Source of the DNA: Blastocatellia bacterium
Lineage (GTDB): Bacteria; Acidobacteriota; Blastocatellia; UBA7656
DNA length: 64,000 nt
Direction: 5' to 3'
NCBI GenBank assembly: GCA_035258805.1
Contig: DATFWY010000251.1
Location: 843-64,842, forward strand
Both the position numbers and the translations under genes were made by a program. This document shows, in pieces, positions 28,041-56,838 of this stretch (the first letter of the stretch is position 1; every line of letters starts with the position of its first letter). The notes beneath the pieces are model-generated. The model searched no databases. It saw nothing but the letters and a program-made list of their open reading frames with translations, and was not told where the DNA came from.

Positions 28041-28090
28041 GCGTACAACTCCTGATAAAGATGAGACCCGAAAAGGACTCGGAGGTAACA

Positions 28091-31270: not shown

Positions 31271-31381
31271 TTTTGTCGAAGCGAGCAAGGTCCTATCTAA
31301 AATCAGACCAGTGCATATTGAGCAGGCGCAAGTGTGCCCCCAAGTAGACTGCGGGTTTTGCTTCCCGCTTGGGCCATTACG

Positions 31382-32956: not shown

Positions 32957-32975
32957 TCAATTCCGAAACTGGCTG

Positions 32976-39026: not shown

Positions 39027-39049
39027 CCCGAACAGAAGAATTGTCTTGT

Positions 39050-39568: not shown

Positions 39569-39635
39569 ATTTTTTCCCCCCTCGCACCAGGAGACAAGAC
39601 CTTCGCGAAGCGCATCATTTCCGGTACTGCAGCCC

Positions 39636-41108
39636 TCAATCTTTGAGGCGCCGGGTCAGCCGACTCTTAACCCATTTAACCATTCGCTCCTCCAGTCCCT
39701 CATCTGTCTCAAATAGCTGATATCCAACCGCGCCACCGTCATAGATCCATACTTCGCTTCCCTTATCCTTGGTTAGATCGTAGAGGTCTGAAATCGCGTT
39801 TGTCACCGGAGCAAAGCCGCGGCTGCCAATAAACAGGATCGGGAAATGCGCCCCGGCGATCTCATCCCTCTCTTTTGCACTTGGTATGTAACCCGAGAGC
39901 ATAACGAGAGCGCCAATCCTCGTATCGCCCAGCGCGGCCATCACGGCAAATTTAGCACCTAGATATGTTCCCAATATCGCAAGTTTTGTTGGATCTACCT
40001 GTGACTGCTCGGCAAGGACATTCACCGCTCCCTTAGCATCTAGATAAGCGCGATCGCGTTCTTCTCTTGCGAGAGAGAAGTAATTGCCTTTTTCGCGACT
40101 TTTGCCGCGCCCACGCCAATCAATGTTGACTACAGCTATTCCATGTTTCGCGAACAGGATTTCGAGGTCATGAAAGATGTAACGATCGCTCCAACCCGAG
40201 TGCAATAAAACAACTCCGGGAACGCGTGTCTCTGCATCAATGTTCTCGGGTATTCGGAGATTGCCGTATATCATCCAGCCATCTTCGCTTTTGAAGGACA
40301 CCTCTTTTACTCTCCCGAGAGATTTCAATCGCAAGGCGATCCAATTGCAGATAACCTCTTCGATTGGTTTTTCGTCACCGGGATCTCGAGGCACCAAGCC
40401 GATTTTTTCGGTGTCGACTCCCTGACTCTTGGCTAAGAAATCAACGCCTTTCTTGTCGGGATACTTGTAGCGCCAGACTGTAAACATGGTCGTACCCATA
40501 CCCATGTTTTCGTAGACGCGGAATTCGCTTTCAGGGCTTTCCGATCTGGAGTAAATCGAAGACATCGCTTCAAATCCAGCTTTGTCTTCCTTGCTAACCA
40601 CGCACTGGATTGGGAGTCGATTGTTTGCCGCAAGCAGATCGCGGGCGCTCTCACTCAGCCTTCCGGAAAGCATTGACAGGGCCTTGACCCGAGGATCTCC
40701 GGCCGTCCCGGTGACAGCCCATTCTGAGCTTACCTCCTCGGCGAAGACCGCGATGCGATCTGAATCTATTTGAGGCTGTTCCGCCATGAAGTTCAATGCG
40801 GCTTGAACATCGTGACGAATATTTGCTTTCTGTGATTCGGTGAACGAGTGATATTCCTGTGAGCCAATGCTTTCGCCTCGACCTCTCCAATCGATGCGCA
40901 AGACGGCGACTCCCTGAGAGTTGAGCAACTGAGCCATACCCGGGTACACGAATGACGTAAATGCATCTCGATCGTGTCCGGCACCGTGAAGGAGCAGCGC
41001 GCCGGGCGCGCGCTCCTCAGCACTCGCTCCGCCGGGAAGGTGCAGTGAGCCGTGAATCGTCCAACCGTCCTCGGTATCAAACTTTACCTGGCGTTCCGAA
41101 GATTCCAT
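39636..41108 (-). CDS. Tandem (A+B) alpha/beta-hydrolase-fold protein, no signal peptide, triad absent
   Basis: Two F-x-T/S-EDGW starts; AEEVS and GTYLG elbows; YDGGAVGYQLF. Confidence 0.88.
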   Translation of the reverse strand: MESSERQVKFDTEDGWTIHGSLHLPGGASAEERAPGALLLHGAGHDRDAFTSFVYPGMAQLLNSQGVAVLRIDWRGRGESIGSQEYHSFTESQKANIRHDVQAALNFMAEQPQIDSDRIAVFAEEVSSEWAVTGTAGDPRVKALSMLSGRLSESARDLLAANNRLPIQCVVSKEDKAGFEAMSSIYSRSESPESEFRVYENMGMGTTMFTVWRYKYPDKKGVDFLAKSQGVDTEKIGLVPRDPGDEKPIEEVICNWIALRLKSLGRVKEVSFKSEDGWMIYGNLRIPENIDAETRVPGVVLLHSGWSDRYIFHDLEILFAKHGIAVVNIDWRGRGKSREKGNYFSLAREERDRAYLDAKGAVNVLAEQSQVDPTKLAILGTYLGAKFAVMAALGDTRIGALVMLSGYIPSAKERDEIAGAHFPILFIGSRGFAPVTNAISDLYDLTKDKGSEVWIYDGGAVGYQLFETDEGLEERMVKWVKSRLTRRLKD

Positions 41109-41133
41109 AATCTCCTCCCGAGAGAGGCAGTGG

Positions 41134-42633
41134 TCACTTTCTGAAATGATTTGCGGTGATTCGCTGAGCGGCGAGAACGCAGACTGTAGCTATAGGCCCT
41201 ACAGCATCTCCTGAAGATGAGCGCGGAACGACGCTTCCGTCGCAGATGAAAAGACCGCTTACATCATGCGATTCGAAATTTGGATTGACCACAGATACCT
41301 TTGGGTCTGACCCGGCTTTGCAGGTGCTAATGCCGTGAGCTATGTGGTAGATGGGCGGCATATCGTACCCGACAATCTTTTTTGCGCCCATCTTCTGCAA
41401 TACTTCTCGAGACATTTCACCGCCTTCACGCAAGCGCTTTACGATGATTTCATTGCCTTCGTACTCCATCTGCGAAGTCCGGAGATTTATGTATCCCCGA
41501 TAACCCTCTGGCTTCTTAAGCACAACAAGCGTTCCGCCCCGGTGCATTCGTGCCTGCTTCATAAATTGCTTGTGCTCGCGGCCGAAGGCGGGGGCAAATG
41601 GACTGAAGGCCAAACCCCAGGGCTCATCTACGCCAATCATTCCGCTATCTTTTATTCTGAGCCTCCCGTAGGCGTTAGGGCCTGCATCATCCAGGAAGAA
41701 ATATCCGGCGGGCGCTGCGCCGCGTGAGCCATCCTTTATGACTTCATCGAAGTATGCATGCACAATGATAGCGGCGTGTATATCCAGGTGTTTGCCGATA
41801 TTGTTATTCTCAACAATAAGTTTTGCACCGAGTTCTTCCTTTGAACCATAACCGGACATGAAGAGCAGGCGTGGCGTGCCGATCACTCCAGCGCTCACGA
41901 TTATGTTTGGTGCTTTCAGCTCAACCATTGCTCCGCCCTGCTGAAAGGCGACGCCGGTTGCAGTTGGACGTGCTCCCCTTTTCTCGATAATTACTCGGTC
42001 CACTGTAGCATTTGGGATGATGTCGACACCGTGCTTCTCGGCAAGCGGTATGTACGTCGTCATCGCATTCATTTTGCTGTCATAACGGCAGAAGTATCCG
42101 CCTTCGCAGAATCCGCAGTAAATACAATTGCGTCGGGCAACCTGTGCAGAGTGAACCTCGCGGCCAAGTGCGCGTGCGGCGTCTCGAAACATGAGACAGC
42201 CCTTCGAGAGCACTTCGTCGGGTTCCGTGTGGATGTTGTAGATCTTTTCGACTTCTGCTGCAGCTCCGCGGCAAGCATCCTCGGTCCAATCAGTGCCTTC
42301 GTCCACCCAGTGCTTATAATCGACGCTGTATGGCAGGTAAACGCTGGCGCCGTAATGCATTGTAGTACCGCCTACCATCTTGACCATGCCCCATGGCCAC
42401 ATGCGCTCAGGAGCATCGTCGCTAAATACATTGGTGATCAACTGTCGCCTCGATGGGATTCCGTAACCAGGTCGAGGCTCGCCTTTCCAATATGGACCGG
42501 CCTCGAGCATCGCGATGCGCAGTTGCTCACCGTTCTTCGGGTTGACTCCCTTCGCGGCGAGATGTGCCGCCAGGATGCTGCCGCCAACCCCGGAACCGAT
42601 TATTATCACGTCGTAGTTCTTTTGAGTTTGCAT
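41134..42633 (-). CDS. GMC family FAD oxidoreductase
   Basis: DVIIIGSGVGG, VGGTT, CIYCGFCEGGYFC, HGISTCKAG, GLFICDGSV. Confidence 0.93.
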   Translation of the reverse strand: MQTQKNYDVIIIGSGVGGSILAAHLAAKGVNPKNGEQLRIAMLEAGPYWKGEPRPGYGIPSRRQLITNVFSDDAPERMWPWGMVKMVGGTTMHYGASVYLPYSVDYKHWVDEGTDWTEDACRGAAAEVEKIYNIHTEPDEVLSKGCLMFRDAARALGREVHSAQVARRNCIYCGFCEGGYFCRYDSKMNAMTTYIPLAEKHGVDIIPNATVDRVIIEKRGARPTATGVAFQQGGAMVELKAPNIIVSAGVIGTPRLLFMSGYGSKEELGAKLIVENNNIGKHLDIHAAIIVHAYFDEVIKDGSRGAAPAGYFFLDDAGPNAYGRLRIKDSGMIGVDEPWGLAFSPFAPAFGREHKQFMKQARMHRGGTLVVLKKPEGYRGYINLRTSQMEYEGNEIIVKRLREGGEMSREVLQKMGAKKIVGYDMPPIYHIAHGISTCKAGSDPKVSVVNPNFESHDVSGLFICDGSVVPRSSSGDAVGPIATVCVLAAQRITANHFRK

Positions 42634-42640
42634 TGATTAG

Positions 42641-43291
42641 TCAGCGCCGCCAGAGTTTCTGAAATTTCGTCCTGCACTCTTCTTCTTCTTGCCAGGTCAT
42701 CTGTGCTTTAAAACCGGAGATGTCCCAGCCGGTGACCAGATCATTGGTGTTCGGGTTTGTGATTTGGTGTTTGTCTCTCTGTTTTAGTATTGGGACTCCA
42801 GCCTGGTCTCGCGGGATGACGTTCTCCGGATAATTCTGATAGAAGACCGTAAACACTCGTGTTCTGGTTTGACGATATACCTTTTGCAGAACCTTGAGAC
42901 GATTCTTATCGCTAATTTTGCTCCCATCTATGATTAACAGGAGGTAGTCAGCTCGGTGAGAGGGTGCAAGCTGAAGAAATGTTCTGCCCTCGAAGAATTC
43001 GGTGCTGCCTTGATTGAAGGCTTCAAGGTCGTCGTCGCTTATTCCGTCGAGCTTCTTCATGACCTCTTCAGTAATCTTGTGTTGCTCCAGGCTTTTGTAA
43101 CCCGGATCGCCTGGGTCCGTCGGGATCAGCGTGTCGCCAATCGATGCAATCATCGCGTGGCGGTCAAGCCTAGAAGCTTGATGACTTTCACTTCTTCCAT
43201 AAGCCAAGCCCGACCCGATGCTTGTGATTGCGATCGAGCCGGCGCCCGATCTCTTCAGGAATTCTCTACGGGAAACTTTGCTTTTGCTCAT
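42641..43291 (-). CDS. TAT-signal protein, gluconate-2-dehydrogenase subunit 3-like
   Basis: SRREFLK; IGDTLIP...PG; F-x-QL-x-x-x-x-R pattern; directly upstream of the GMC gene. Confidence 0.7.
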   Translation of the reverse strand: MSKSKVSRREFLKRSGAGSIAITSIGSGLAYGRSESHQASRLDRHAMIASIGDTLIPTDPGDPGYKSLEQHKITEEVMKKLDGISDDDLEAFNQGSTEFFEGRTFLQLAPSHRADYLLLIIDGSKISDKNRLKVLQKVYRQTRTRVFTVFYQNYPENVIPRDQAGVPILKQRDKHQITNPNTNDLVTGWDISGFKAQMTWQEEEECRTKFQKLWRR

Positions 43292-43358
43292 ACCTCAATC
43301 AACCTCTCACGATGCGCTCAACGATGGTGGTATTTCCAGAACCCACAAGTCCCTCAGT

Positions 43359-43658
43359 TCATAGATTACGAGTTAACTCCAACAGCTTTTGGTAGCTAAT
43401 GGCGCTCCAGGTTTCAACAGAGCTTGCCATGCCTGAAGCGAGTATGACGGAGGCCATTTTGAAGGCGGTCTCTTCATTTGGAGCCTCGAGAATATCCATA
43501 AAATCGTACGGTCCCAGCAGAGCGAGGTGTTCTCTAACATTCACCTCGGGGCAAGCTTCTCTGTACCGCGCTCCAACCTTTTTCCCGATCTCTTCCATCG
43601 ACTTGATATTCTTCGCAAGCTCCGGCGCCATCTTTATCAACATCACAAACGTTGCCAT
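43359..43658 (-). CDS. GYD-domain protein
   Basis: LLGPYDFMDILEAPNEETA; ATG 43658 after AGGAG. Confidence 0.85.
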   Translation of the reverse strand: MATFVMLIKMAPELAKNIKSMEEIGKKVGARYREACPEVNVREHLALLGPYDFMDILEAPNEETAFKMASVILASGMASSVETWSAISYQKLLELTRNL

Positions 43659-43749
43659 TTGATATCTCCTTTCAAGTGTTCGACCACGCAATGAGAGTGC
43701 GCACAAGCCGCCCTAAACAACAGGGCATGCTTTGCGAGGACGCGATCTT

Positions 43750-44136
43750 TTACTGGCTCAAAATATCAATCACGACTTCGTCCTCGACGAACTGCTTGTA
43801 CTGCTCATGCAACCGCTTGCTCTGCGGACTCTTGATGTAAGCCTCCTTGGCTTCCTTGTTCACGAAGTCGATCGACATGCCATATTTGTACTTTGTGAGA
43901 TTGCTCGTCTGCGGGCCAACCACGATATTGGTTGCGCCACTGATCGTGGGTAACGTCGCTCTTGTTTCAGCGAGAATTCGATCGATAGCAGACTGCGGCA
44001 CATCAGCCTTGAAGTTAAACGCGACCGCGTGCCGCAGAATTCCCTTCGGCGCGTTTACCGGAGGAGTCTGTTTAGCACCCACCAGCACGACCAATATCAG
44101 CAGTAGAGTCAGACAAACTGGAATCAAGCGCTTCAT
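43750..44136 (-). CDS. Secreted Dabb (stress-responsive A/B barrel) protein
   Basis: Signal peptide; LRHAVAFNFK and YGMSIDF...AY. Confidence 0.8.
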   Translation of the reverse strand: MKRLIPVCLTLLLILVVLVGAKQTPPVNAPKGILRHAVAFNFKADVPQSAIDRILAETRATLPTISGATNIVVGPQTSNLTKYKYGMSIDFVNKEAKEAYIKSPQSKRLHEQYKQFVEDEVVIDILSQ

Positions 44137-44203
44137 TGCAACCTCCTGAGTATCCTATGCGGCGGTATTAAACCGACACTCCTCATTCTGCAATTCTCTG
44201 GGG

Positions 44204-44947
44204 CTATTCCTGCCAACGAATCTTCTTGAAATAATTCCGCCGACGCTCCTCTTCACTCCAGGTGAGTGGACCGGGATAACCCGCCCTGTCCCATCCAGTG
44301 AATATCTCTTGCGTGTTCGGATTAGTGATCTGATGATCATCACCGTTGGCTAGTAGCGGCACGCGGTGCGCATCGTTCGGCCAACGATCCTCCGGGTAGT
44401 TCTGATAGTAGACCGTGAAGACGATTTCTCGAACGTGCGCGTAAATCTCCTTCAGCTTTGTCTGAAGGGTCTCATCTTTGAACCCGCCGGTTTGAAGGAT
44501 CCTGTTGAAATACTCGGCGCGTTGATTTTCTTGCAAGTGCACGAACGCGCCTCCGAGCTGCTCCGAACTTGATCGGTCGAAGAGTTCCAGATCGGCATCC
44601 GGAAATTCTTCAAGCCGGCGGTTGATCTCGTCAGTGATTCCTTTCCATTCGAGATCCCTATAGCCAGGATCTCCCGGCGCAGAAGGAATCAGCGTGTCGC
44701 CGATTGCGAAGAGTATGGCTTGCCGGTTGACCCTGGGAAAGGCTTGTTCTCTAGAAGTCGTCTGCTCTTCCGCGTCTGAACCTGAATGTAGCGTCGTAGG
44801 CGACCCCGAGGAGGGCGGCCCATCCTCAGCGGCCTTTATTCCGGCCATCCCGGCAATAGTAACTGTTCCGGCGGTCGCGGTCGTTCTTATGAAGTCGCGT
44901 CGCGAAACGCCTTTGTCCTTCTTACTCTTTCTTTTTTGCTTTGCCAT
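44204..44947 (-). CDS. TAT-signal protein, paralog of 42641-43291
   Basis: SRRDFIR; shared IGDTLIP, TVYYQNYPE, HQITNPNT and TGWD; likely ATG 44947. Confidence 0.75.
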   Translation of the reverse strand: MAKQKRKSKKDKGVSRRDFIRTTATAGTVTIAGMAGIKAAEDGPPSSGSPTTLHSGSDAEEQTTSREQAFPRVNRQAILFAIGDTLIPSAPGDPGYRDLEWKGITDEINRRLEEFPDADLELFDRSSSEQLGGAFVHLQENQRAEYFNRILQTGGFKDETLQTKLKEIYAHVREIVFTVYYQNYPEDRWPNDAHRVPLLANGDDHQITNPNTQEIFTGWDRAGYPGPLTWSEEERRRNYFKKIRWQE

Positions 44948-44995
44948 ACTCTCACTCAGGATTGGACACACTCCGTCTCTTGATCCGTTGTCGGT

Positions 44996-46462
44996 TTATA
45001 AGCTGAGTTGCGGCTTCAACCACTTCACGATAAATGGCTGAAGGTTTTCATCGAGATCGAACAGTTGATATCCGATTGAACCGCCCTCGTATTCAAGCAG
45101 TGTGCTTCCGTGATCCTTTGCCATTTTGTAGAAATCACGAAAGGCTTGGGCGATTGGAGGCAAGCCCAAAGTAGAGACGAAAAGAATCGGGAATTTCGAT
45201 TTCTCTACATCTGCTCGGTCCGGCATTCCTCCGAGCATCACAAATGACTTCACCCGAGAATCCGAGCAGGCAGCCTTCAAACCGTACTTCACTCCGATGG
45301 ATGTTGTCACCAAAGCTAGTCGATCGGAATTGACTGCAGTCTGTGCAGCAAGAAACTCCAGAGCGGCCTTGACGTCGAGATATGCTTTGTCCCGTTCCGC
45401 TATTGGGAGATCAAAGTAATTTCCCTTTTCCTGGCTTTTGCCCCGTCCACGAAAATCAAAATTAAGTACGACGAATCCCGCGGCGGATAGCAGTTGCTCG
45501 AGGTTGTCGAAAACATGGCGGTCGGTTAAATAAGAATGCACCAGTACTACTCCGGGCGCCTTGGGCTGATTCGCGCTTTGCGGCATTCGCAGAGTACCAT
45601 ACAGATTCCACCCGTCGTCTGTTCGAAAGGAAACATCCCGGGCCGAAGCGCGAAGCCTGGGCACAACCCAATCCGCGACGACAGTTTCAAGTGGTTTCTC
45701 GTTTGGGAATTTGTTGGCGTACATGATGAACATCGAATTGCCAATGCCGATGTCGCGATAAATCATCAAATCACTGGTCGGATTCGTTGATAATTTGTAG
45801 ACCTCTGCCATGTCAGCGAGTCCGATCTTGTCTTCTTTGGATGCGAGGCACAGCACCGGCAAGTCACTGCGACTCGCAATGACATCTTTTGCACCTTGAC
45901 CCAACCTCCCGGAGAGCAATACCAGCGTACGAACTCTCCGATCTTTATAAGAAGCGATCACCGCGGGTTCTGCTGTCACGCTTTCCGCGACTACTCCGAT
46001 CCGGTCCGGATCCACTATGGGCTGACGGCTAAGGAAGTCAATAGCTCCGCTCACATCGAGAGAGATTTTCGAGCGCTGCTCTGAATTGAAGGCGTTATAC
46101 TCCGTTGGCTCAGCGCTCTTACCTCTCCCTCTAATGTCGATGCGCAGCGTTGCGGTATCGCCCAACTCAGATCTTAAGCTTAGTTTTGCGAAAGTGTTTG
46201 GTCCGATCTGGTGACCTCCCAGATAGATGTCACGGTCGTGAGCGGGTGAATGAACCATGACAACCCCCGGAATCTTCCTTCCAGGGGTCAGGCCGGCGGG
46301 AATGCTTAGCGTGCCGTGAATGACCCAGCCGTCTTCGGTCTTAAAAGAAACCTCCTTCTCATCAAAATTGGACTTAGCCGCGTTTTGCTCCTGCGGGACA
46401 CCTGCGGCGAGATTCCAAAGAAGCAGTACTAATGCTGGCGCGCTGGAGAGCGCTCGTTTCAT
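44996..46462 (-). CDS. Secreted tandem (A+B) alpha/beta-hydrolase-fold protein, catalytic His absent
   Basis: Signal peptide; AESVT and TTSIG elbows; YEGGSIGYQLF. Confidence 0.88.
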   Translation of the reverse strand: MKRALSSAPALVLLLWNLAAGVPQEQNAAKSNFDEKEVSFKTEDGWVIHGTLSIPAGLTPGRKIPGVVMVHSPAHDRDIYLGGHQIGPNTFAKLSLRSELGDTATLRIDIRGRGKSAEPTEYNAFNSEQRSKISLDVSGAIDFLSRQPIVDPDRIGVVAESVTAEPAVIASYKDRRVRTLVLLSGRLGQGAKDVIASRSDLPVLCLASKEDKIGLADMAEVYKLSTNPTSDLMIYRDIGIGNSMFIMYANKFPNEKPLETVVADWVVPRLRASARDVSFRTDDGWNLYGTLRMPQSANQPKAPGVVLVHSYLTDRHVFDNLEQLLSAAGFVVLNFDFRGRGKSQEKGNYFDLPIAERDKAYLDVKAALEFLAAQTAVNSDRLALVTTSIGVKYGLKAACSDSRVKSFVMLGGMPDRADVEKSKFPILFVSTLGLPPIAQAFRDFYKMAKDHGSTLLEYEGGSIGYQLFDLDENLQPFIVKWLKPQLSL

Positions 46463-46521
46463 AAATCAGTTCTCCTTTTGAAACAGCAACGGTTTCACCT
46501 CGATCATGGCCGAGATCCTGA

Positions 46522-47412
46522 TTATTTCCCGAAGGACTCAGCAAGGTAACGGGCCACCAGTTCCGACTCTGACCATGTCAACTGCGCGCCGCGTGACACC
46601 ATGTCGTGAACTGTTCGTTTCCAGCCTTCTGGTTCCTTTCTCTGACCAGTGATCGTTTGCAAGCTGTGACATTGAACACATGTTGCAAGGATGAGGCCCT
46701 TTCCTTCTTTGTCTGGAAGCAGCGCCGATAGATCGGCTGGCCTGGATGCATTCCCAGTTGAACCAGCTGAAGATCGGCCGCTTTGGGAGACACCGTCGGG
46801 CCCAAAATTCGTCGCAAGGTATTCAACAACTGTGGCTATTTCTTCGGGGCGCAGATTGGCGCCGAGACGTACCATGTCTTTCACGCTTGCAAGCCAACCG
46901 GAAGAATCCTTTCGTTTCGTCGTTATACGGTTCAAAGCATGGCAATCAACACAGGATCTCCGGATGATTCCCTTCGCAGCACCCTCGGGCAGGCTTTCTG
47001 TCGACGCCTGTTCGCGCTGACCCGCGGCGGCCTTGCCTGCGATCTCGGATTTTTCATTTGTTGATCCGGAACCTGCCGACCCAGGGCCAAAGCTTTGTGA
47101 CAGGTAAGTTGAAATCAATTCGATTTCGTCGGGGGCAATCTGCGCGCCTCGCGCGATCATGTCCCTGACAGTCCTCACCCACTGAACCTCGCTCTTGCGT
47201 TGCAACACAATCGGACCGAGCGAGTGACATTGTGTACAGGTCGCGATCACAAGATTTCTTCCAGCACCATCGGGCAATGAACTGGTTCTATCCCGGCTGC
47301 CAACTTCGATGGGAACCTGAGCGCGAAGGACAACGGATCCAACGCACAGAGCATAGGCGACCACAAAAGCGGCTCGTAGTTTTGGCATTTTGGAGATCAT
47401 ATGAGTGTTCAC
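46522..47412 (-). CDS. Secreted triheme cytochrome c (three tandem monoheme modules)
   Basis: CTQCH, CVDCH and CVQCH, each followed by W-x3-V-x2-M; Ser/Gly linkers. Confidence 0.9.
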   Translation of the reverse strand: MNTHMISKMPKLRAAFVVAYALCVGSVVLRAQVPIEVGSRDRTSSLPDGAGRNLVIATCTQCHSLGPIVLQRKSEVQWVRTVRDMIARGAQIAPDEIELISTYLSQSFGPGSAGSGSTNEKSEIAGKAAAGQREQASTESLPEGAAKGIIRRSCVDCHALNRITTKRKDSSGWLASVKDMVRLGANLRPEEIATVVEYLATNFGPDGVSQSGRSSAGSTGNASRPADLSALLPDKEGKGLILATCVQCHSLQTITGQRKEPEGWKRTVHDMVSRGAQLTWSESELVARYLAESFGK

Positions 47413-47433
47413 CGCTTGCTAGTGAAGCTGTCC

Positions 47434-49332
47434 CTAAACCTTCTTCGTTCGTCGTTCGGCGACCGAGTAGCGCGGATACCATGTTGATTCAGATCCTATT
47501 CCGCTGCGTTCGATCACGACATCAACAATGTAAGGCCTTCCATCGCGCGTTGCTTTTACCCCGCGCTGAAGGGCTGCACGCAGGCCGTCTGGATTTGTCA
47601 CCGCTTCGCCCGCGATTCCAAAACCGGCGCCGATCCTGGCGAAATCAACGTCTGGGCTTCCCAGGTAACACGCCATATCTTTTCCGGTTTGCCCTTGTTT
47701 TCCCATTTTGCCGAGAATTCGCTGTCGAGGTTCGTTGTAACCTCGATTATTGAAGACCACCGTAATTACCGGGACCTCATAGCGCGCCATGCTCCACAAT
47801 GCAGGTAAGCCGCCAAACATGAAGGCTCCGTCGCCTATAACCGAGACCACCTGTCTATTCGGCTGAGCGAGCTTGGCCCCGATCGACAGCCCCACTCCCC
47901 ATCCAAGCGCCTGTTGCTGAGAACGTCCGATACGCAGTCGTCCGTTATCGCCTGTACGAAGATAACTGAAGAGTTTCGACTTTTCTGTGCTCAATTCATC
48001 GACTATCAGCGCATCCTTGTCAATTGCGTTATCGATCTCCATTGCGAGACGCTGCCAGGAGATCGGATTATTGTCCCAATTTCCCTTGGCTACTGCGCTA
48101 AGAGAATCCTGCATCGATTTGTTGAATGCGGCTATCGCTTCGATTCGAGGCTTAGCTATTCCGGCCAGTCGCTCCTTGGTCGCCGTGCTCTTTATCGCTG
48201 TGATTATGTCGCGTACTCCGAGCCGAACGTCGGCCAGCATTGGCAGCTCCACCGAGTAGGCTTTATTGATCTCGTCGGATTCAGTGGTGATTTGAATCAC
48301 CTTTGTGTTTCCGGGACTAGGAAGGAATCCTCCGAGTACCAGCAACACATCGGCGGCTCTCGGGAATCGAGTATTCGGAGTGTGCTCGGCGTTGATGAAC
48401 AACGGGTGTGCTGTCGGAAAACAGTCGACCCAGGAATCAATCAGCACTCGCATTGCGGGAATCCCGAGCAACTCCGCAAGCTCTATACATTCGGGCCGCG
48501 CCCCGCTAGTCCACGCTTCAGGGCCCGCATACAAGCACGGGTTCTTAGCCTCCAGCAGCATGCGGGCCGCCGTTTCCACTGCGGCAGCCGGCGGCCTGAT
48601 CGCAGCGGGGATGTTGAACTTTTCCTGGGGAACGATCGTAGCGGCGACATCCTTGCGAACAAGTACGTCTTCGGGATAGGTCGTGAGCACCGGTCCACCC
48701 GGCGGAGTGGTCGCTACCTTTATTGCTCGGCGCGTGACGTCGGTTATCACGTCTGATTGTGATACGAGCCAATGCCATTTTGATGTTGCCCCGGCTGTAT
48801 TCAGCAGGACTCTCCCTTCGTAGATGCCAGTTTGATCCTCAAACTCCGTTGGGACCATATCAGTGGCGACGATGATCGGTAGCCGAGCCGACCGCGCGTT
48901 AAACATATTCGATGATGCATGAGGTGCTCCTGCGACTGACATCATAGCTACGCCAATCTTGCCTGATGCCATAGCGATGCCCGAGGCAATCGCAACGCCC
49001 TGACCTTCTTCAACCGCTAGAACCAGGTGCATTCGCGGATGGTCGACGAGAGCGTCATAAACACCACGCGAATGCGATGAGTTGCCGACCACAACGAATT
49101 CAGCCCCGGCCGCGCACCACTGCTCAACCAGTACTTCTCCTCCGGTGCCTTGCATCGTCTTTACACCGTTAGCTCCCTCACCTACGAGCTCTGTCCCCGC
49201 GGCAGTCAGCGGACTCAAGGATTCCAATACAGCGTTTGCTGCAACTGTGCTGAAACCAGCGGCCGCCATTTTCTTCAGAAACCCGCGGCGGGATAGACCA
49301 TTGTTCAGGTAACGCATCACCAGGTCTCGCAT
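47434..49332 (-). CDS. Thiamine diphosphate-dependent enzyme (benzoylformate decarboxylase-like) with TAT signal
   Basis: SRRGFLKK; LAVEEGQGVAIASG; GDGAFMFG...VVFNNRGY. Confidence 0.9.
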   Translation of the reverse strand: MRDLVMRYLNNGLSRRGFLKKMAAAGFSTVAANAVLESLSPLTAAGTELVGEGANGVKTMQGTGGEVLVEQWCAAGAEFVVVGNSSHSRGVYDALVDHPRMHLVLAVEEGQGVAIASGIAMASGKIGVAMMSVAGAPHASSNMFNARSARLPIIVATDMVPTEFEDQTGIYEGRVLLNTAGATSKWHWLVSQSDVITDVTRRAIKVATTPPGGPVLTTYPEDVLVRKDVAATIVPQEKFNIPAAIRPPAAAVETAARMLLEAKNPCLYAGPEAWTSGARPECIELAELLGIPAMRVLIDSWVDCFPTAHPLFINAEHTPNTRFPRAADVLLVLGGFLPSPGNTKVIQITTESDEINKAYSVELPMLADVRLGVRDIITAIKSTATKERLAGIAKPRIEAIAAFNKSMQDSLSAVAKGNWDNNPISWQRLAMEIDNAIDKDALIVDELSTEKSKLFSYLRTGDNGRLRIGRSQQQALGWGVGLSIGAKLAQPNRQVVSVIGDGAFMFGGLPALWSMARYEVPVITVVFNNRGYNEPRQRILGKMGKQGQTGKDMACYLGSPDVDFARIGAGFGIAGEAVTNPDGLRAALQRGVKATRDGRPYIVDVVIERSGIGSESTWYPRYSVAERRTKKV

Positions 49333-49417
49333 TGGAGTTCTCCTTCGTCTGTTTCCACGTCAGACTCTTTGCACCGGGTTCCGATCCAGCTTTACCGATC
49401 CATCACTTCGAGAAACC

Positions 49418-50908
49418 TCAACGATTTGCCGATTTACTCTTCTCGAGTCTATCCAATTCTCGTTCAAGCCAAACCGGACGAGTAATTGTTGGCGTAGGTA
49501 TTGGAATCGAATAGTTCGGGTGATAGCTTATGTCTATTACCTGCCCATCCTTTAACACTGCAGTCACACGTTGAGCATTACGAATATCGTCGAGCGGGTT
49601 GGCGCTAACCACGATCATATCCGCTCGTTTGCCTGGCTTGATGGTCCCGAGTTCCCTACCCTTTCCGAGGAATTCGGCATTGTCGCGAGTTGCGATTGTA
49701 ATCGCCTGCATCGGCGTGAATCCTGCGTCAACCAGAAACATCATCTCTCTTTGCAGGCTCAATCCAGGAACGGACAGGAAGGTGTCAGAGCCCGCCACTA
49801 TTTTTCCGCCGGCCTTGTAGAACGCCTTCAAAAGATCCTGTATTTTCTTGTAGCCCACGCGCATCTCAGCCAGGTCGTCTGCGCTCTTGAGTTTGTAAAC
49901 GATTGAGGTAGCCCACATCTTCTTGACGTCGTCCGGAACATAGGCCAGTTGCGGATTCCTGGAATACTCAGCGTCTTCACGAGCGAAATCGTCCCGCCTT
50001 TCCGTAGCCATTCTCCACCAACTGGACATAGTCGGTATCAACGCGACCTTCTTGCCAGCGAGGTATTTCGCAAGTTGTTCCGCTTTGACTGGATCAATCT
50101 TCGAAAATGACTTGATGTCATTGATGAACATCTGCAATTCATTCGGTGTTGACGTGAGTCGCCGGGGATAGTCAGTGAGAGCCTGGACGATTCCGCTCGC
50201 GTGTTCAAGGCCGTCGATGCCTGCGTCCGCAGCTTCACGAGCATCTACGCTCCTCAGATGTCCCGTGACAGGTATCCCAAGCTTGTGCGCTTCTTCGATG
50301 ATTGCTTTCAAAAGCTCCGGAGTGATCTTCTCACGCACCTTGATGGCCGATGCTCCCTTGCCGTGAAGCAGATCCACCGCGCGCTTCGCCTGCGTCTCGT
50401 TTTCAACGGCGACGTGCGTTTCCCTGGCCGGCGGCGGCGTGTCCAGTCCGTCACCAACGTAGAAGATCCGAGGTCCGCGTATCCTTCCTTGCTCAACAGC
50501 GGCGCTGACATCGGCGATCCATTGAAGGTCATTACCAAGATCTTTAACAGTGGTTACCCCATTCGCTAAGAAGAGCTCGCCCATCCAATCGTGGTAATGT
50601 ACGTGCATATCGATCAGACCGGGAAGAACGAACTTGCCCGTGGCATCTACGATCTTTGTTGCCTTGGGAAACTTCGCCGTAGCCTTTGTTCCGATTTGCG
50701 CGATCTTATTGCCTTTGATTAGAACGACTGAATCCGGGATCGGCGGCCCGCCGTTTCCATCGATGAGTGTCCCGCCAATTACGGCAACCATCTGCTCGGG
50801 TTGTGCAATGGATTGAGTGCTTGCTCCCGATTGTATCAGGCCGAGAATAGACAGAGATAAGCAAACAACTCGCAGCATTCTGCGAAGGCCGAGGTGCGTT
50901 CCCTTCAT
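49418..50908 (-). CDS. Secreted amidohydrolase
   Basis: Signal peptide; PGLIDMHVH, TGH, LEH, GSD, GKRAD. Confidence 0.92.
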   Translation of the reverse strand: MKGTHLGLRRMLRVVCLSLSILGLIQSGASTQSIAQPEQMVAVIGGTLIDGNGGPPIPDSVVLIKGNKIAQIGTKATAKFPKATKIVDATGKFVLPGLIDMHVHYHDWMGELFLANGVTTVKDLGNDLQWIADVSAAVEQGRIRGPRIFYVGDGLDTPPPARETHVAVENETQAKRAVDLLHGKGASAIKVREKITPELLKAIIEEAHKLGIPVTGHLRSVDAREAADAGIDGLEHASGIVQALTDYPRRLTSTPNELQMFINDIKSFSKIDPVKAEQLAKYLAGKKVALIPTMSSWWRMATERRDDFAREDAEYSRNPQLAYVPDDVKKMWATSIVYKLKSADDLAEMRVGYKKIQDLLKAFYKAGGKIVAGSDTFLSVPGLSLQREMMFLVDAGFTPMQAITIATRDNAEFLGKGRELGTIKPGKRADMIVVSANPLDDIRNAQRVTAVLKDGQVIDISYHPNYSIPIPTPTITRPVWLERELDRLEKSKSANR

Positions 50909-50927
50909 GTTCTGTTCTCCTGAAAAC

Positions 50928-51389
50928 CTATTTCGGCAGGTTCGTAGCTTGATGCGCTACCAGTCTCCACTGACCCTGCTGTTTCACGTAAACACGCAGA
51001 AAGCGGTTTTGCACAGTGTAATCCTGTCCCTGGTATTTCGCGTTGATGGTGTTTCGGCCCGCCAGGATTGCAGTATTGCCGTATACCTTGGCGACTACAT
51101 CGTCTCTTTCAATAGACAGGTATGTGCGGTCGCCCGCTTTGAACCCGGCTATGACCTCTGCTTTTGTTTCGACCTTCCCTGTCGGGTGTACATACGTACA
51201 GTCATCGGCAAGTATGCGGCTCAGGGCCGCGGTGTCGCCGTGCATGTAGGCCTCGGCTCGCTCAGTATCTACTTTCAACACTTCTTCCTCGGCTTTAACA
51301 TCGGCTGGCGTGCGCTTACTGTTCTCCTGGGCTTTGATTGAAAACACGGAAAGAAAAATTAAAGCACCAACAAAAGCGATCCGCTTCAT
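50928..51389 (-). CDS. Secreted NTF2-like (DUF4440) protein
   Basis: Signal peptide; ILADDCTYVHPTG, VYGNTAIL, WRLVAHQAT. Confidence 0.9.
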   Translation of the reverse strand: MKRIAFVGALIFLSVFSIKAQENSKRTPADVKAEEEVLKVDTERAEAYMHGDTAALSRILADDCTYVHPTGKVETKAEVIAGFKAGDRTYLSIERDDVVAKVYGNTAILAGRNTINAKYQGQDYTVQNRFLRVYVKQQGQWRLVAHQATNLPK

Positions 51390-51542
51390 ATCTTTTACAT
51401 CCTCCTTTGCAAAGTGCGCCTTGGCAAGAAGGCAACTTGCTCACTTATTCCACTCTCTCAAAGACTGTGTGAGAAATCATGAATACCACCGATGGGGCAG
51501 TGGGTGGTATTCAGGGCTTCACCCAGCCTCCCATGAATCGTC

Positions 51543-53021
51543 TCACTTTGTTTCTACCGATGTCTCGACTCCGGAGAGCATTTCGTCCAGAGTTGACCTG
51601 GGAATCAATTTGCCGCCGAGCACGACTGCGGCGATCCTCCTGGTGTTCCTGATTTCCTCAAGCGGATTGCCATCCAATAACACCAGGTCCGCTATCTTGC
51701 CCTTTTCAACTGTGCCGAGCGAGTCAAGCAATCCAAAGTACTCAGCAGGATTGCGCGTTGCGCAGCGGAGCGCGTCTACTGGAGTAAGTCCAGCCTTGAC
51801 CAGCAGAGCGAGCTCGTCGTGCAGGCTGAAGCCTGGATATTCGTAAAGACCGGCGGTATCGGTACCGGCCAGTAGCTTTACGCCGGATTTGTGCATCGCT
51901 CTTATGAGCCGTAATTGAGCCTCGAAAAGTCTTTGACGTTCAGGAAAGTACTCAGGATCAAACCCTTTCAAAAGAGCCGCCTTCTGGACCTTCCAGGAAT
52001 CTTTCCTTTCGCGGGGGATGTACTTGAGCCGAGAATCGTTGAGGAAATAGCGGTCATCAGTCATTGCGAGGTTTTGCCAGCCAACGAGTGTGGGCGTCTG
52101 CCAGGTACCGTTCTTAACAAAATGTGCAAAAAGGGCAGCCGCATTCTTGTCGTCGTAGGTATCGAGGGTCTTCAATTCGGTCCTTATTTCAGCGCCAACG
52201 AAAACAGACAGGCCCGATTTGGCGACTGTCGCGTTCGCTTCATCATGCAAGGCGTCGGCATTCTTGGAGCACGCAGAAACAACTCCAAAGAGGTGTTCGA
52301 GAGATTTCTGTCCAGCATCCGACGCTTCGGAAGCAGTGACGCTTGCGGGTACGTGGCCGGCAAACGAGAGGCCCTGTTTCTTTGCCTGCTCCGCAACAGC
52401 GAAGTACGATTCCCGCGGCAGCATTGAATAGACTTTTATGAAATCTGCGCCCTGCTGCTTTAGGTTATCCACCGCTTGCCGGGCTTCGATCGCGTTCTCA
52501 ACATTCAGAGAAGTTCGCCGTCCTATTTTGCGTGGTCCATCTACAATTACACCGGCGGCGAAGATGCGAGGGCCAATCAAAGTGCCATTGGCTATCTGTT
52601 TGCGCCACTCTTTGAGCTGTACAAACTCTTCCGGATTCCCGCCCATCTCGCGTATACCGGTCACACCGTTGGCGATGAAAAGCGCCAAAAACTCCATATA
52701 TGAGATGTGTGCGTGCATGTCCCACAGACCCGGAATCAAGAACTTGCCGCTTCCATCAAAGCGCTTGACATCCTTCGGCGCTTTGACATTATCGGTCGTA
52801 CCGATTTCCTTGATTCGATCGCCGACGATCACCACGGTCGTGTCACGGATGAGCCGGGCTCCAGTAGTGTCGACTACGGTGACGTGTGTTATAACGAGAG
52901 GAATTTTGGCCTCGCCTTTTAGTTGGGCAACCAAGAACGTACTGAGCGCAAAAATAATTAGAAGCGCAATGACAATCATCATTGCCGCCGTTAAGCGTCG
53001 AGATATTCCTTGTTCGCACAT
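51543..53021 (-). CDS. Secreted amidohydrolase
   Basis: PGLWDMHAH, FIKVY, FAGH, LEH, AGTD, GKIADLV. Confidence 0.92.
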   Translation of the reverse strand: MCEQGISRRLTAAMMIVIALLIIFALSTFLVAQLKGEAKIPLVITHVTVVDTTGARLIRDTTVVIVGDRIKEIGTTDNVKAPKDVKRFDGSGKFLIPGLWDMHAHISYMEFLALFIANGVTGIREMGGNPEEFVQLKEWRKQIANGTLIGPRIFAAGVIVDGPRKIGRRTSLNVENAIEARQAVDNLKQQGADFIKVYSMLPRESYFAVAEQAKKQGLSFAGHVPASVTASEASDAGQKSLEHLFGVVSACSKNADALHDEANATVAKSGLSVFVGAEIRTELKTLDTYDDKNAAALFAHFVKNGTWQTPTLVGWQNLAMTDDRYFLNDSRLKYIPRERKDSWKVQKAALLKGFDPEYFPERQRLFEAQLRLIRAMHKSGVKLLAGTDTAGLYEYPGFSLHDELALLVKAGLTPVDALRCATRNPAEYFGLLDSLGTVEKGKIADLVLLDGNPLEEIRNTRRIAAVVLGGKLIPRSTLDEMLSGVETSVETK

Positions 53022-53054
53022 AATCGCTGGGATGCCCGCTTTAATTCTGAGCGT

Positions 53055-53930
53055 TCAATCTACCGATCTCGGAGCGTTCTTCTCTTTACGCGTCCGGTTG
53101 CCAAGTGTTGCCGATAACCAGGAACCAACCATCTCTTCTATGGGCGGTTCGTTTGGAAACTCGAATCGCCAGGTGCTGAACATCGTGGTCCCCATCGCAA
53201 GCCCATCAAAAACCTGTATCCGGCTGTTCCCGTTTTTTGAAGCGAGATAAGCGTCGACCATATCCTTGAGCCCAGGCTTGTCTTCCTTACTGACGAGACA
53301 AAAGATCGGTTTGCGGGTCCTGGAAAATGCATCTACGGCAAAGCGATTGAGACGACCAGAGATCAGAACGCAAGCGACGACGTGTTTGCTTGTTGCAGCC
53401 GCAGTCAAAACGGCGCCGGCAGTATCCTGTTCCCCTACGATGCCAATGTGATTTCGCTTAACTCCTGTTTGCGCTAGGAACTGAAGCGCGGCTTTAACGT
53501 CCAATAGAACGGCCTCCCGCTGCTCCGGAGCCATCGAATGAAATCTCTGCGGCTCGCGACTGGCTCCTCGCCCGCGAATGTCAATTCTAAGCGTCGCAAG
53601 CCCATGGCTGGATAACGTATCTGCCAGGCTGGGGGTCGAAATCTGGCCAAAGGCGTCGGATTCGTGTCTTGAGCCGTGCACCAGGACGACGCCGGGCACC
53701 CTGCCGCTACTTCGCGGGATGTGAAGCGTTCCGATAATTCGCCAACCGTCCTTCGTTTTGAATTCGACTGTTTCCTCGCACCCCAGATCTGCGGCTGACG
53801 CTGCGCTAGCCGCGATGGATGATGCGTTTGAACCCATCTCGCTGCTTCGACGTTGCTCGACCGCACCTGACGCGAATCCTGCTGTGTTCGTCGATTTGGA
53901 TTTCACTGGGCTACACCAGCTTTGAGCCAT
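53055..53930 (-). CDS. Alpha/beta-hydrolase-fold protein, single A-type domain, triad absent
   Basis: VEFKTKDGW, IDIRGRGAS, GEQDT elbow, GLAMGTTMF. Confidence 0.85.
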   Translation of the reverse strand: MAQSWCSPVKSKSTNTAGFASGAVEQRRSSEMGSNASSIAASAASAADLGCEETVEFKTKDGWRIIGTLHIPRSSGRVPGVVLVHGSRHESDAFGQISTPSLADTLSSHGLATLRIDIRGRGASREPQRFHSMAPEQREAVLLDVKAALQFLAQTGVKRNHIGIVGEQDTAGAVLTAAATSKHVVACVLISGRLNRFAVDAFSRTRKPIFCLVSKEDKPGLKDMVDAYLASKNGNSRIQVFDGLAMGTTMFSTWRFEFPNEPPIEEMVGSWLSATLGNRTRKEKNAPRSVD

Positions 53931-55240
53931 TCAACGACTAATGGCTCAAGCTTCGGGTCTAATTCGAAAAGCTGATAACCGATAGCGCCGCCGTCGTACA
54001 TAAGAAGACGCGTCAACTTGTCGGGCGTCGCTTCGTACAATGCTCGCATGATCTGAGTCACCTGCTTATGTCCGGTGCAGGTCACGTACAGAGTATGAAC
54101 CGCACCGCTGGTCAGGTAATCGCGTTCTTTGTCATCGACCGGTATGTATCCGGTCAACAATGCCAGAGCTTTGACGCGCGAATCTCCTATCGATCCGCGC
54201 ACTGCATGCTCGGCGCCGTGAACAACGCCGACAACCCCAACTCTATCTCGATCGACTCCGTCCTGTGACGTCAGAAAATCAATTGCCGCCTTTGCATCGA
54301 GCCTGCCATTAGCACGCTCCTCTTTCGAAAGATCGAAATACTTACCTTTGCTGGTGCTCTTGCCCCGGCCTCGCCAATCGATATTGAGCACGGCGAATCC
54401 TTCTCGCACAAGTAATCGTTCGAGACTTGCGAACACATATCGATCGCTGCGTCCGGAGTGCAGCAACACCGCGCCGGGTGACGGCCAGACATCGGTATCG
54501 GGGAACAGCAAATTGCCGAAGATCTCCCAACCATCTTCGGTTGTGAAGGAAACCTCACGCTCGCGGCCTACTGAAGAAAGCTGACGGCGAATCCATCCAG
54601 CTATCAGTTGCTCAATCGGTTCGCGATCCGGAAAACGGAATGCCCACTTCTCAATCATCCGCTCCCCGCGTCCCATCCCTTCGAAGACATGCAAGTCTGT
54701 ATCTGGATGGTTCGAGGAAAGATAAATGTCGGTCATGTCTCTCAAAGAAGCCTTGTCCTCGCTGCTCGCTATACACAAAACAGGGTCATCCTGCCACTCG
54801 GTAAGAAATTGCTTCGCGGTACTGCTCAATCGACCCGACAAGAACACGAAAGACCTGACTTGCGAAAAGGCGCGTGAGCCAAGGACTGCCGCGTCTGCAG
54901 CGCCTTTTTCGGCAATGATCGCGATGCGATCGCCGACACCCTGCCTGGCAGACAACAGCTCCACGGCCGATCTCACCGATTTCACCTGCCGGTCCGATTT
55001 ATGCAGTGAGTCCTTCTCTGTTCTTCTGTTGTTCTCAACTGTCTTATCTCGAAGCTCAACCCAATGAAACGACAAACCGGCAGATTCAATAGCCACAGAA
55101 AGCCGGTTGCTGGGAGCGATCGAGCTTCCGCGGCCATTTTTCCGGGAGGCTCGCGAAGACCTGAGCATTAGAACGCTACCAAGCGAGCTGGTTAAGCCCG
55201 TAGGATTCAAAGCGTCCACTTGTTCGTCCTTTATTCCCAA
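53903..55240 (-). CDS. Tandem (diverged A + B) alpha/beta-hydrolase-fold protein, triad absent
   Basis: AEKGA and GVVHG elbows; EVSFTTEDGW; YDGGAIGYQLF. Confidence 0.85.
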   Translation of the reverse strand: MGIKDEQVDALNPTGLTSSLGSVLMLRSSRASRKNGRGSSIAPSNRLSVAIESAGLSFHWVELRDKTVENNRRTEKDSLHKSDRQVKSVRSAVELLSARQGVGDRIAIIAEKGAADAAVLGSRAFSQVRSFVFLSGRLSSTAKQFLTEWQDDPVLCIASSEDKASLRDMTDIYLSSNHPDTDLHVFEGMGRGERMIEKWAFRFPDREPIEQLIAGWIRRQLSSVGREREVSFTTEDGWEIFGNLLFPDTDVWPSPGAVLLHSGRSDRYVFASLERLLVREGFAVLNIDWRGRGKSTSKGKYFDLSKEERANGRLDAKAAIDFLTSQDGVDRDRVGVVGVVHGAEHAVRGSIGDSRVKALALLTGYIPVDDKERDYLTSGAVHTLYVTCTGHKQVTQIMRALYEATPDKLTRLLMYDGGAIGYQLFELDPKLEPLVVEWLKAGVAQ

Positions 55241-55307
55241 TGCTAACTTTTCGATAACATTCCTAGGTGCAATCGTGACCGTCCCAGGAAAGATTGATAA
55301 TTACGTG

Positions 55308-56795
55308 CTAAGGGCACGTCGCGCCGCTGACGCCAACTTCCTTGAGTTCTGAGCGATGAACTTCGAGCTGCTTTTTGAACCACGAGACTATAGTTGGCTC
55401 GAGTTCTCTGTCCTCACGAAAACGTAAGTACGCTACGATGCTGCCTGGATACGTAAGCACCTTGTTTGAGTAATTCTCCGCGACGGTAGAAGCGAAATTC
55501 CTTGTCAGCTCCCCCATTCCGTCACCGGTAACGACAAGAACAGGTTGCTTGATTGAACTCAGAGTGTCCCGGTCGCCCGCATCGCTCCACGCCCACACCA
55601 CGGGATCGAGCATCCCAATTGCTCTCAAGTTCGGATTCTCTTTTGCGCCGTTTAGAGCATAGTTAGCCGCGAGCAATGCACCCAGAACACCTATTCGATC
55701 AGCATCGACACCATTGCACGAAGTGAGCACCTGATAGCCTCTATGAAGGTCGCGTCGTCCCGCCATGATTTCTGCGAGACTTTGGTCAATGTATGACCCT
55801 TTGTTGATGCTTTTGCCGATGCCCCGATATTCAAGGTTAAGAAAGGCTATGTTATTGGCCAGCAGCAATCGCTCGAGATTCCGATAGATGTTTCGATCAG
55901 TTAGCGCGGTGGGTAGGAGGATTACTCCGGGAACTGTCTGTCCACGATCTATTGCTTCCGGTAAACCGAGATTTGCGTAGAGTATCCATCCGTCCTCGGT
56001 TTCAATTGTTATCTCGCGAACGTTGCCCAAAAGTCGAAGCTGCTCTTCCAGCCAGGCCCCCGCGGCGAAGTCCAACGCGTTCTCTATAGGCCGGTCGGCA
56101 TATCGATTGCGCCACATATTACACATCGTGACGCCTACGCCGAGACCGTCCTGCACCCAAATATCGCTTTGCGGGTTTTTATTCAAACTGTAAGCCTTGG
56201 TCATATCAGCGAAGCCTCGCTTGTCTTCTTTGCTGACGATGAACAGCATCGGCTTGTTTCTGTTTCCAGCTAACACCTCCATTGCGCTCTGAGACAGAAT
56301 TCCGGAGAGAAGCACCAGAACACCGACCCGCGAATCTTGCATGGCGCCTATCACTGCAGGTCCGGCGCTGAACTCTTCGGCCACGACTCCAATGCGTCTG
56401 TGATCCACCTCATCCTGCGTGCCGATAAAGTCGAGCGCGGCCCGGACGTCCAGCACAACCTTGTCGCGCTCGGCCTGAGGCATTTCTATGAATGGAGTTC
56501 CTCCTTCGCTTTTCCCGCGTCCTCGTATGTCGATCCGCAACGTGACCACAGATTCCTGAAGCTTCGCCCAACCGGGAAAGCTGACCCAAACTGACCGCGA
56601 GTGCATTGAAGAGTGAAGCAGAAGGACAGCGGGACGCCTCTCCGATTTGGGCTGCTTCGACGGGATGGTGAGGGAACCACTAATGGTCCAGCCATCTTCA
56701 GTAACAAAGGTCACTTCTTTCTGAATTGAATCTGGCTTCAAATAGAAACCAGCCGGCTTGTCGTCCTTCTCATTCATTATCTGGTTGAACTTCAT
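55308..56795 (-). CDS. Tandem (A+B) alpha/beta-hydrolase-fold protein, triad absent
   Basis: EVTFVTEDGW, AEEFS and GALLA elbows, YPGSIV. Confidence 0.85.
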   Translation of the reverse strand: MKFNQIMNEKDDKPAGFYLKPDSIQKEVTFVTEDGWTISGSLTIPSKQPKSERRPAVLLLHSSMHSRSVWVSFPGWAKLQESVVTLRIDIRGRGKSEGGTPFIEMPQAERDKVVLDVRAALDFIGTQDEVDHRRIGVVAEEFSAGPAVIGAMQDSRVGVLVLLSGILSQSAMEVLAGNRNKPMLFIVSKEDKRGFADMTKAYSLNKNPQSDIWVQDGLGVGVTMCNMWRNRYADRPIENALDFAAGAWLEEQLRLLGNVREITIETEDGWILYANLGLPEAIDRGQTVPGVILLPTALTDRNIYRNLERLLLANNIAFLNLEYRGIGKSINKGSYIDQSLAEIMAGRRDLHRGYQVLTSCNGVDADRIGVLGALLAANYALNGAKENPNLRAIGMLDPVVWAWSDAGDRDTLSSIKQPVLVVTGDGMGELTRNFASTVAENYSNKVLTYPGSIVAYLRFREDRELEPTIVSWFKKQLEVHRSELKEVGVSGATCP

Positions 56796-56838
56796 CGCCG
56801 AGATCTGTAACTGAGCTCCAGCCTGGGCTTTCTGGTGA

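Follow-up and report, generated by a model that had tools for sequence, protein, structure and literature searches.

A predicted Tat-exported thiamine diphosphate enzyme and its probable cytochrome c partner in a Blastocatellia bacterium

All characterized bacterial thiamine diphosphate (ThDP) enzymes of the decarboxylase superfamily known to us are cytoplasmic. A ThDP enzyme gene bearing a signal for twin-arginine translocation (Tat), at 47434..49332 on the minus strand of a stretch of DNA from a Blastocatellia bacterium, a soil acidobacterium, raises the question of what chemistry such an enzyme might perform outside the cytoplasm and with which partner. The stretch, referred to below as the window, comprises 64,000 nucleotides of contig DATFWY010000251.1 (positions 843 to 64,842; assembly GCA_035258805.1). 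An initial annotation, made from the nucleotide letters and their translations, had recognized the enzyme and its signal without giving the strand and had proposed C-C cleavage or decarboxylation in the periplasm. The analyses described here lead us to a more specific proposal, to which as a whole we assign a probability of roughly 0.45: the gene would encode a Tat-exported, flavin-free ThDP enzyme whose periplasmic oxidation of a 2-oxo acid or aldehyde delivers electrons to a co-encoded cytochrome c.

The open reading frame (ORF) was confirmed, with its start codon at ATG 49332, and encodes a protein of 632 aa (P0001). Pfam searches recovered, each above its cut-off, a PYR domain (TPP_enzyme_N, PF02776; residues 63-170, 48823..49146), a middle domain (TPP_enzyme_M, PF00205; residues 252-374, 48211..48579), and a PP domain (TPP_enzyme_C, PF02775; residues 473-605, 47518..47916), all on the minus strand and in the order expected of the decarboxylase (POX/ALS/BFD) superfamily. 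Glu109 of the PYR domain (codon 49006-49008), which is invariant in our family alignment A1, pairs in alignment with Glu47, the activating residue in benzoylformate decarboxylase (BFD). The PP domain displays G500-D501-G502 and N528-N529 (nucleotides 47746-47835) in invariant columns, matching the GDG-X(24-27)-NN motif for diphosphate and Mg2+, and these are followed by a conserved Y532-N-E-x-R536 stretch. The original description of a complete ThDP enzyme with a GDG...NN motif and a cofactor-activating glutamate is thus borne out, and both the fold and the cofactor motifs are established at the level of sequence. In the AlphaFold2 model (mean pLDDT, 88.8), the chain is confidently placed from residue 58 onward, and the top 50 Foldseek matches of this model are all ThDP enzymes. 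Its structural neighbors include BbmA, 4-hydroxybenzoylformate decarboxylase, benzaldehyde lyase, BFD, carboxyethylarginine synthase, acetohydroxyacid synthase (AHAS), and glyoxylate carboligase; their identities to the query fall within 20-23%, and no single one is outstanding. No NCBIfam model reached its cut-off against the protein, the best being PRK08327 with 202 versus 456 bits, and the matches in the ESM Atlas carried generic names only.

The enzyme fold is preceded by an N-terminal extension of ~60 residues. Residues 1 to about 45 (49198..49332, minus strand) form a Tat signal peptide consisting of an n-region, MRDLVMRYLNNGL, the SRRGFLKK motif (residues 14-21; RR codons at 49285-49290), an uncharged h-region, MAAAGFSTVAANAVL, and a following segment that begins ESLSPLTAAG. 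This arrangement conforms to the Tat motif S/T-R-R-x-F-L-K followed by a mildly hydrophobic stretch. The curated model TIGR01409 (TAT_signal_seq) matches residues 13-33 with 17.8 bits against a cut-off of 16.7, in agreement with the initial reading of SRRGFLKK and the hydrophobic stretch behind it. Between the signal and the PYR domain lies a disordered linker (residues about 40-57; 49162..49215, minus strand) whose length and composition differ among the members of alignment A1 and for which the model gives pLDDT values of <50 at residues 40-54.

Conservation of the arginine pair, which had been put forward as a check on the original proposal, proved to be nearly complete. Among 116 full-length homologs obtained from a search of 5.8 billion proteins, with identity down to 38%, every one has an RR-x-hydrophobic pattern near its N terminus, and the RR pair together with the 13 residues preceding it is kept in all 116 and in nearly all of 80 genomic loci drawn from several phyla. 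The strict [ST]RR pattern is found in 76 of these 80 species-level loci, and three more have NRR, DRR, or GRR; the remaining one (L003) is an over-long ORF call and was left aside in the RR count, and in at least one over-long ORF call (L076) the [ST]RR match falls upstream of the true start. In loci with a correctly placed ORF start, the RR pair nearly always lies at a distance of 13 residues from Met1 (12 or 14 at single loci). The n-region itself follows the family consensus M-[RK]-x-L-[VI]-x-x-[YF]-L-x-x-x-[LI]-S-R-R-x-[FL]. Such conservation is unusual for a signal peptide and, by analogy, recalls signals read by dedicated chaperones. A proofreading chaperone devoted to this enzyme may bind the n-region. 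Many relatives have an AxA cleavage site (AHA↓Q, ADA↓Q, or ALA↓Q) 35-45 residues into the protein; the window protein has no canonical AxA, its only possible site being LTAA↓G, near which the signal might be cleaved. TatC is encoded in the window's own genome. The signal model, the conservation, the cleavage sites of relatives, the presence of TatC, and the exported products of neighboring genes (see below) all favor the previously proposed export by the Tat route, which we consider highly probable as a prediction.

Immediately downstream, beginning 21 nt past the stop codon of the ThDP gene, lies a gene for an exported three-heme cytochrome c of 296 aa (46522..47412, minus strand; Pfam Dehyd-heme_bind and Cytochrome_CBB3). 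It comprises a Sec-type signal and three tandem mono-heme units joined by Gly/Ser-rich linkers, with the heme motifs CTQCH, CVDCH, and CVQCH, each followed by a W...DM..RGA signature. The closest solved relative of the heme unit is the diheme domain of quinohemoprotein amine dehydrogenase (1JJU; E 2e-5); the unit is of the type that serves as the built-in electron acceptor of that periplasmic enzyme. We called ORFs in the 80 loci and clustered all neighbors within 5 kb of the ThDP gene by BLAST at E 1e-8 and again at 1e-3. The cytochrome family emerged as the only conserved neighbor, and no third conserved gene was recovered within 5 kb at either threshold. Cytochrome homologs were seen in 40 loci by the ORF screen, a number that rose to 48 of 81 loci after rescue with tblastn; in each case the homolog directly adjoins the ThDP gene and shares its strand, lying either upstream or downstream. 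The mono-heme versions lie upstream of the ThDP gene and the di- and triheme ones downstream of it, and across the loci the partner cytochromes bear Sec signals with AxA sites. The ThDP gene is thus coupled to an exported c-type cytochrome in both gene orders. The survival of the adjacency through changes in gene order argues for a functional pair, and we regard a partnership between the enzyme and the cytochrome as likely; that the cytochrome is the sole conserved neighbor further argues for an oxidative, electron-yielding reaction.

The neighborhood screen also returned a 10-locus cluster of ~162 aa, which we rejected as a further partner: these ORFs seem to be no more than the cytochrome gene read out of frame. 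The cluster coincides with the cytochrome ORF wherever the coordinates were compared, and it occupies the spot at which tblastn places the cytochrome in loci missed by the ORF caller. The partner cytochrome of one Terriglobia genome, in which the module occurs as two identical copies (L004:7651-8163 and L017:11998-12510), departs from the usual CXXCH heme motif with CGQSCH (CX3CH). Within the window, the heme unit of the cytochrome shares 31% identity with part of a propeller protein (about 31781-31996).

On the basis of these observations, we propose that the enzyme would bind ThDP and Mg2+ and form a dimer while still in the cytoplasm, dimerization at this stage being suggested by the location of the ThDP site between two subunits. 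ThDP is unavailable outside the cell, and in this superfamily the active site is formed between two subunits; together, these two properties would explain the use of Tat. The folded holo-dimer would be exported by Tat, lose its signal peptide, and become active in the periplasm. There, attack on an aldehyde, or on a small 2-oxo acid that loses CO2, would give hydroxyalkyl-ThDP (the enamine), which, instead of being protonated and released, would be oxidized in two one-electron steps by the co-encoded cytochrome. The resulting acyl-ThDP would then be hydrolyzed to a carboxylic acid, and the three-heme string would relay the electrons to the respiratory chain. The periplasmic location in the initial annotation is accordingly retained as a prediction, whereas its chemistry appears incomplete, as it left the cytochrome conserved in 48 of 81 loci unlinked to the reaction. 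For the oxidative chemistry taken by itself, we judge the chances to be about even.

Among known proteins, the closest comparison is with BFD (MdlC, 1BFD) and uncharacterized BFD-like proteins (PRK07092, PRK08327, and 4Q9D), which have the same three-domain ThDP fold and share with the window protein the activating glutamate, an equivalent of BFD His281 in an FPTxHP motif (His309 in FPTAHPL), the GDG...NN motif, and a GP(D/E) loop in the middle domain. However, the window protein is only 21-23% identical to them in structural alignment, and it does not qualify as a BFD (EC 4.1.1.7): it scores 151 versus 493 bits against PRK07092, and the position of BFD His70 is taken by Met131, Ser26 falling outside the alignment. 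It further differs from BFD in its Tat signal, linker, C-terminal tail, and cytochrome partner. The hydrophobic Y-G-A-L-R loop of BFD reads Y-N-E-x-R in the window protein, which hints at a small polar substrate. The best match by both sequence (E 8.5e-31) and fold (TM 0.73/0.86) is BbmA, a ThDP-dependent HKA synthase (8X3X). BbmA is 23% identical to the window protein, and its residue 8 aligns with query residue 63, leaving the N-terminal extension without a counterpart in the alignment.

Members of the family occur widely among uncultured bacteria from soil and the sea, including Acidobacteriota, Alpha- and Gammaproteobacteria, Binatia, and Eremiobacterota. In a maximum-likelihood tree, pairing with the cytochrome occurs in four of six clades, including 27 of the 28 alphaproteobacterial rows. 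A culturable organism, Bradyrhizobium sp. dw_411 (locus L036), also has both genes of the pair. A search of 1.84 billion representative proteins delineated the boundary of the signal-bearing group: hits of at least 600 aa that match from the query N terminus all possess the signal, down to about 30% identity, and relatives of 540-570 aa, in which the alignment begins at query residue 63, have none. These cytoplasmic sisters score best, though below the cut-off, against the BFD model, and they share with the exported family the catalytic positions E109, H309, GDG, NN, and Y532. Specific to the exported family are the signal and linker, an arginine (Arg536) where the sisters have lysine, and a C-terminal tail (residues 608-632; 47437..47511, minus strand) ending in GIGSESTWYPRYSVAERRTKKV and conforming to the consensus G.G..S.W[YH]P..S.A..R.R.V. 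The tail is kept in all clades and absent from the cytoplasmic sisters, its W618 being found in 87% of Tat-family members versus 4% of the sister members. We considered whether it tracks with the cytochrome and rejected the idea: the tail is present in clades both with and without the cytochrome and hence cannot be assigned to cytochrome docking. One BFD-like protein (P0248) of the otherwise cytoplasmic sister group has a different Tat-like N terminus (MKRRDMIKMGAASVAG...AAQQ), which suggests that export signals may have been gained more than once among BFD-like ThDP enzymes.

The 8.26-Mb genome from which the window derives has a single Tat-type copy, and its two other paralogs match residues 60-610 only. 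The family is present in 4 of 58 genomes of the same order, including the window's own, and is therefore an accessory gene; in 14 other genomes of the same genus we found one copy that is 83% identical and one that belongs to a different clade (43%). The module was probably acquired by horizontal transfer. The current annotation of members as "acetolactate synthase" or "benzoylformate decarboxylase" is probably wrong. In the closest genomic relative (L001, Blastocatellia, 69% identity), the order amidohydrolase, ThDP enzyme, three-heme cytochrome, and alpha/beta hydrolase is kept.

Neighbors in the clades that lack an adjacent cytochrome include TonB-dependent receptors, which recur beside family members, an arginase-family protein, an aminotransferase, a peptidase of family S9, and a DUF385/F420H2_quin_red protein. 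In the gammaproteobacterial loci L056, L058, L059, L061, L062, L066, L067, and L071, one of these genes stands beside the ThDP gene and the cytochrome is not adjacent. This gammaproteobacterial set recalls the arginine transaminase pathway, in which 5-guanidino-2-oxopentanoate is decarboxylated by a ThDP enzyme.

Alternatives to the proposed periplasmic oxidation concern both the location of the enzyme and its chemistry. The protein might stay in the cytoplasm, either by initiating past the RR pair, for which Met22 and Met60 are available in frame, or by using its N-terminal segment in some cytoplasmic role. The downstream start, which the initial annotation named as a refuting condition, is disfavored by conservation of the first 40 residues at the protein level in about 200 relatives and by a Shine-Dalgarno-like GAAGGAG (49340..49346, minus strand), read from the sequence 7 nt before ATG 49332. 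Moreover, the frame stays open for just nine codons upstream of that ATG, Met60 is not conserved, and the partner cytochrome must itself be periplasmic; retention in the cytoplasm thus appears very improbable. Somewhat less remote, though still quite unlikely, is a Tat-targeted enzyme that is held by its uncleaved signal at the periplasmic face of the inner membrane, in the manner of Rieske proteins. The want of a clear AxA site, with LTAA↓G as the best candidate, would fit such an anchor, but the uncharged stretch is only ~15 residues long and rich in Ala, Gly, and Ser, and canonical AxA↓Q sites are present in many relatives. A comparably low probability attaches to a periplasmic flavoenzyme in the manner of PoxB, with flavin adenine dinucleotide (FAD) in the middle domain and electrons flowing from ThDP via FAD to the cytochrome. 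In this superfamily, the established way of passing electrons from ThDP to an external acceptor is a flavin relay, as in PoxB, and pyruvate oxidase/PoxB, AHAS, glyoxylate carboligase, and cyclohexanedione hydrolase (CDH) are among the sequence and structural matches. Indeed, PoxB and the pyruvate oxidases oxidize hydroxyethyl-ThDP and deliver electrons to respiration, which is the logic that we propose for the window enzyme; however, Escherichia coli PoxB is a cytoplasmic, membrane-peripheral FAD protein that reduces quinone, whereas a periplasmic location and a c-type cytochrome as electron acceptor are proposed for the window enzyme. The NCBIfam PoxB model gives it 115 versus a cut-off of 792 bits. 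By the evidence of a single motif, the protein does not have the glycine-rich FAD loop of POX and PoxB: GPE stands at 270-272 of the middle domain, where FAD-binding CDH has GGG. The same loop is GPE in the Mycobacterium smegmatis BFD-like protein (4Q9D) and GPD in BFD, and its acidic residue, Glu272, is kept in 82% of the family. This loop, together with the BFD-like affinity of the closest NCBIfam model and of the flavin-free sister proteins that are its nearest relatives, makes flavin binding unlikely.

The main rival is a Tat-exported periplasmic enzyme that performs non-oxidative decarboxylation, lyase, or carboligase chemistry, with the cytochrome serving other dehydrogenases such as the GMC flavoprotein encoded about 3 kb downstream in the window (41134-42633, minus strand), which has neither a signal peptide nor a dedicated cytochrome gene. 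In favor of this rival, non-redox enzymes make up the closest relatives and the top structural hits of the window protein, namely, BFD, 4-hydroxybenzoylformate decarboxylase, benzaldehyde lyase, and BbmA, the HKA synthase. Against it, neither a GMC protein nor any other dehydrogenase is a conserved neighbor of the ThDP gene, beside which the cytochrome stands in 48 of the 81 loci, and this pairing outlasts changes in gene order and heme number. We accordingly regard the non-oxidative alternative as rather unlikely. The periplasmic oxidation favored here nevertheless faces several adverse points, some of which this rival shares as support. The Tat signal is kept, and an adjacent cytochrome absent, in two clades amounting to 28 loci (12 Bryobacterales/KSB1 and 16 gammaproteobacterial rows), so that the chemistry of the family may not need a cytochrome. 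The same catalytic positions are found in the cytoplasmic sister family, whose enzymes are presumably non-redox; the case against FAD comes from a single loop motif; and the three-heme cytochrome could in fact serve the GMC flavoprotein, either instead of the ThDP enzyme or in addition to it. Furthermore, we know of no characterized precedent for direct electron transfer from ThDP to heme c without a flavin or an iron-sulfur cluster. Going by homology and synteny, the three-heme cytochrome would be first of all the partner of the ThDP enzyme, although it could serve the GMC system too.

If the pairing with the cytochrome is functional, it would constitute a third electron outlet for ThDP enzymes, besides flavin (pyruvate oxidase and PoxB) and iron-sulfur clusters (PFOR), and, should the oxidative reading hold, the family would represent a new type of periplasmic dehydrogenase. 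More tentatively, and with some doubt, we suggest a new class of respiratory dehydrogenases with ThDP as the sole organic cofactor, in which the enamine, lacking both flavin and iron-sulfur intermediaries, would reduce a c-type heme directly in the periplasm and thereby feed the respiratory chain; its substrates would possibly be 2-oxo acids or aldehydes, such as glyoxylate, pyruvate, or even formaldehyde, converted to carboxylic acids. The closest organizational parallels are quinohemoprotein amine dehydrogenase and the FAD sugar dehydrogenases with a Tat-bearing small subunit and a cytochrome subunit, in which an exported catalytic subunit is likewise paired with a heme c acceptor; here, however, ThDP would take the place of the quinone cofactor or FAD, and the Tat signal resides on the catalytic subunit itself. 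The family would also provide the Tat field with a new cofactor class as cargo, namely, ThDP-Mg2+ in an obligate dimer, and the module may point to an undescribed route for oxidizing small acids or aldehydes outside the cytoplasm. We found no characterized Tat-exported ThDP enzyme in the open literature searched. Gluconacetobacter diazotrophicus has an L-amino-acid oxidase with a Tat signal that makes a 2-oxo acid, and ipdC was not found by a genome search in that strain (PMC5053998); exported enzymes producing 2-oxo acids therefore do exist.

The ThDP gene resides within a long minus-strand array in which most of the proteins, with a few exceptions, have an N-terminal signal, and the majority of the genes around it code for exported hydrolases and dehydrogenases. 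The gaps flanking it are 21-85 nt long, and a scan for promoters and terminators gave counts at chance level and so set no limits to the operon. Over ~20 kb (37644-57624), the array consists mostly of signal-bearing amidohydrolases (four), tandem-domain alpha/beta hydrolases (at least five), and SnoaL/DUF4440 proteins (two SnoaL-like members), and it also has a Dabb protein; it looks like a periplasmic breakdown pathway for an amide or ester compound. Near the GMC flavoprotein and the Dabb protein are two paralogous Tat-signal small subunits of the "Gluconate_2-dh3" type (42641-43291 and 44204-44971, minus strand), and genes for MFS transporters also lie near the array. On the opposite strand, at 27965-34496, the window encodes an outer-membrane barrel of the TonB type (OMP_b-brl_4) and, after it, a Vgb_lyase/SGL propeller protein and a PQQ-type propeller.

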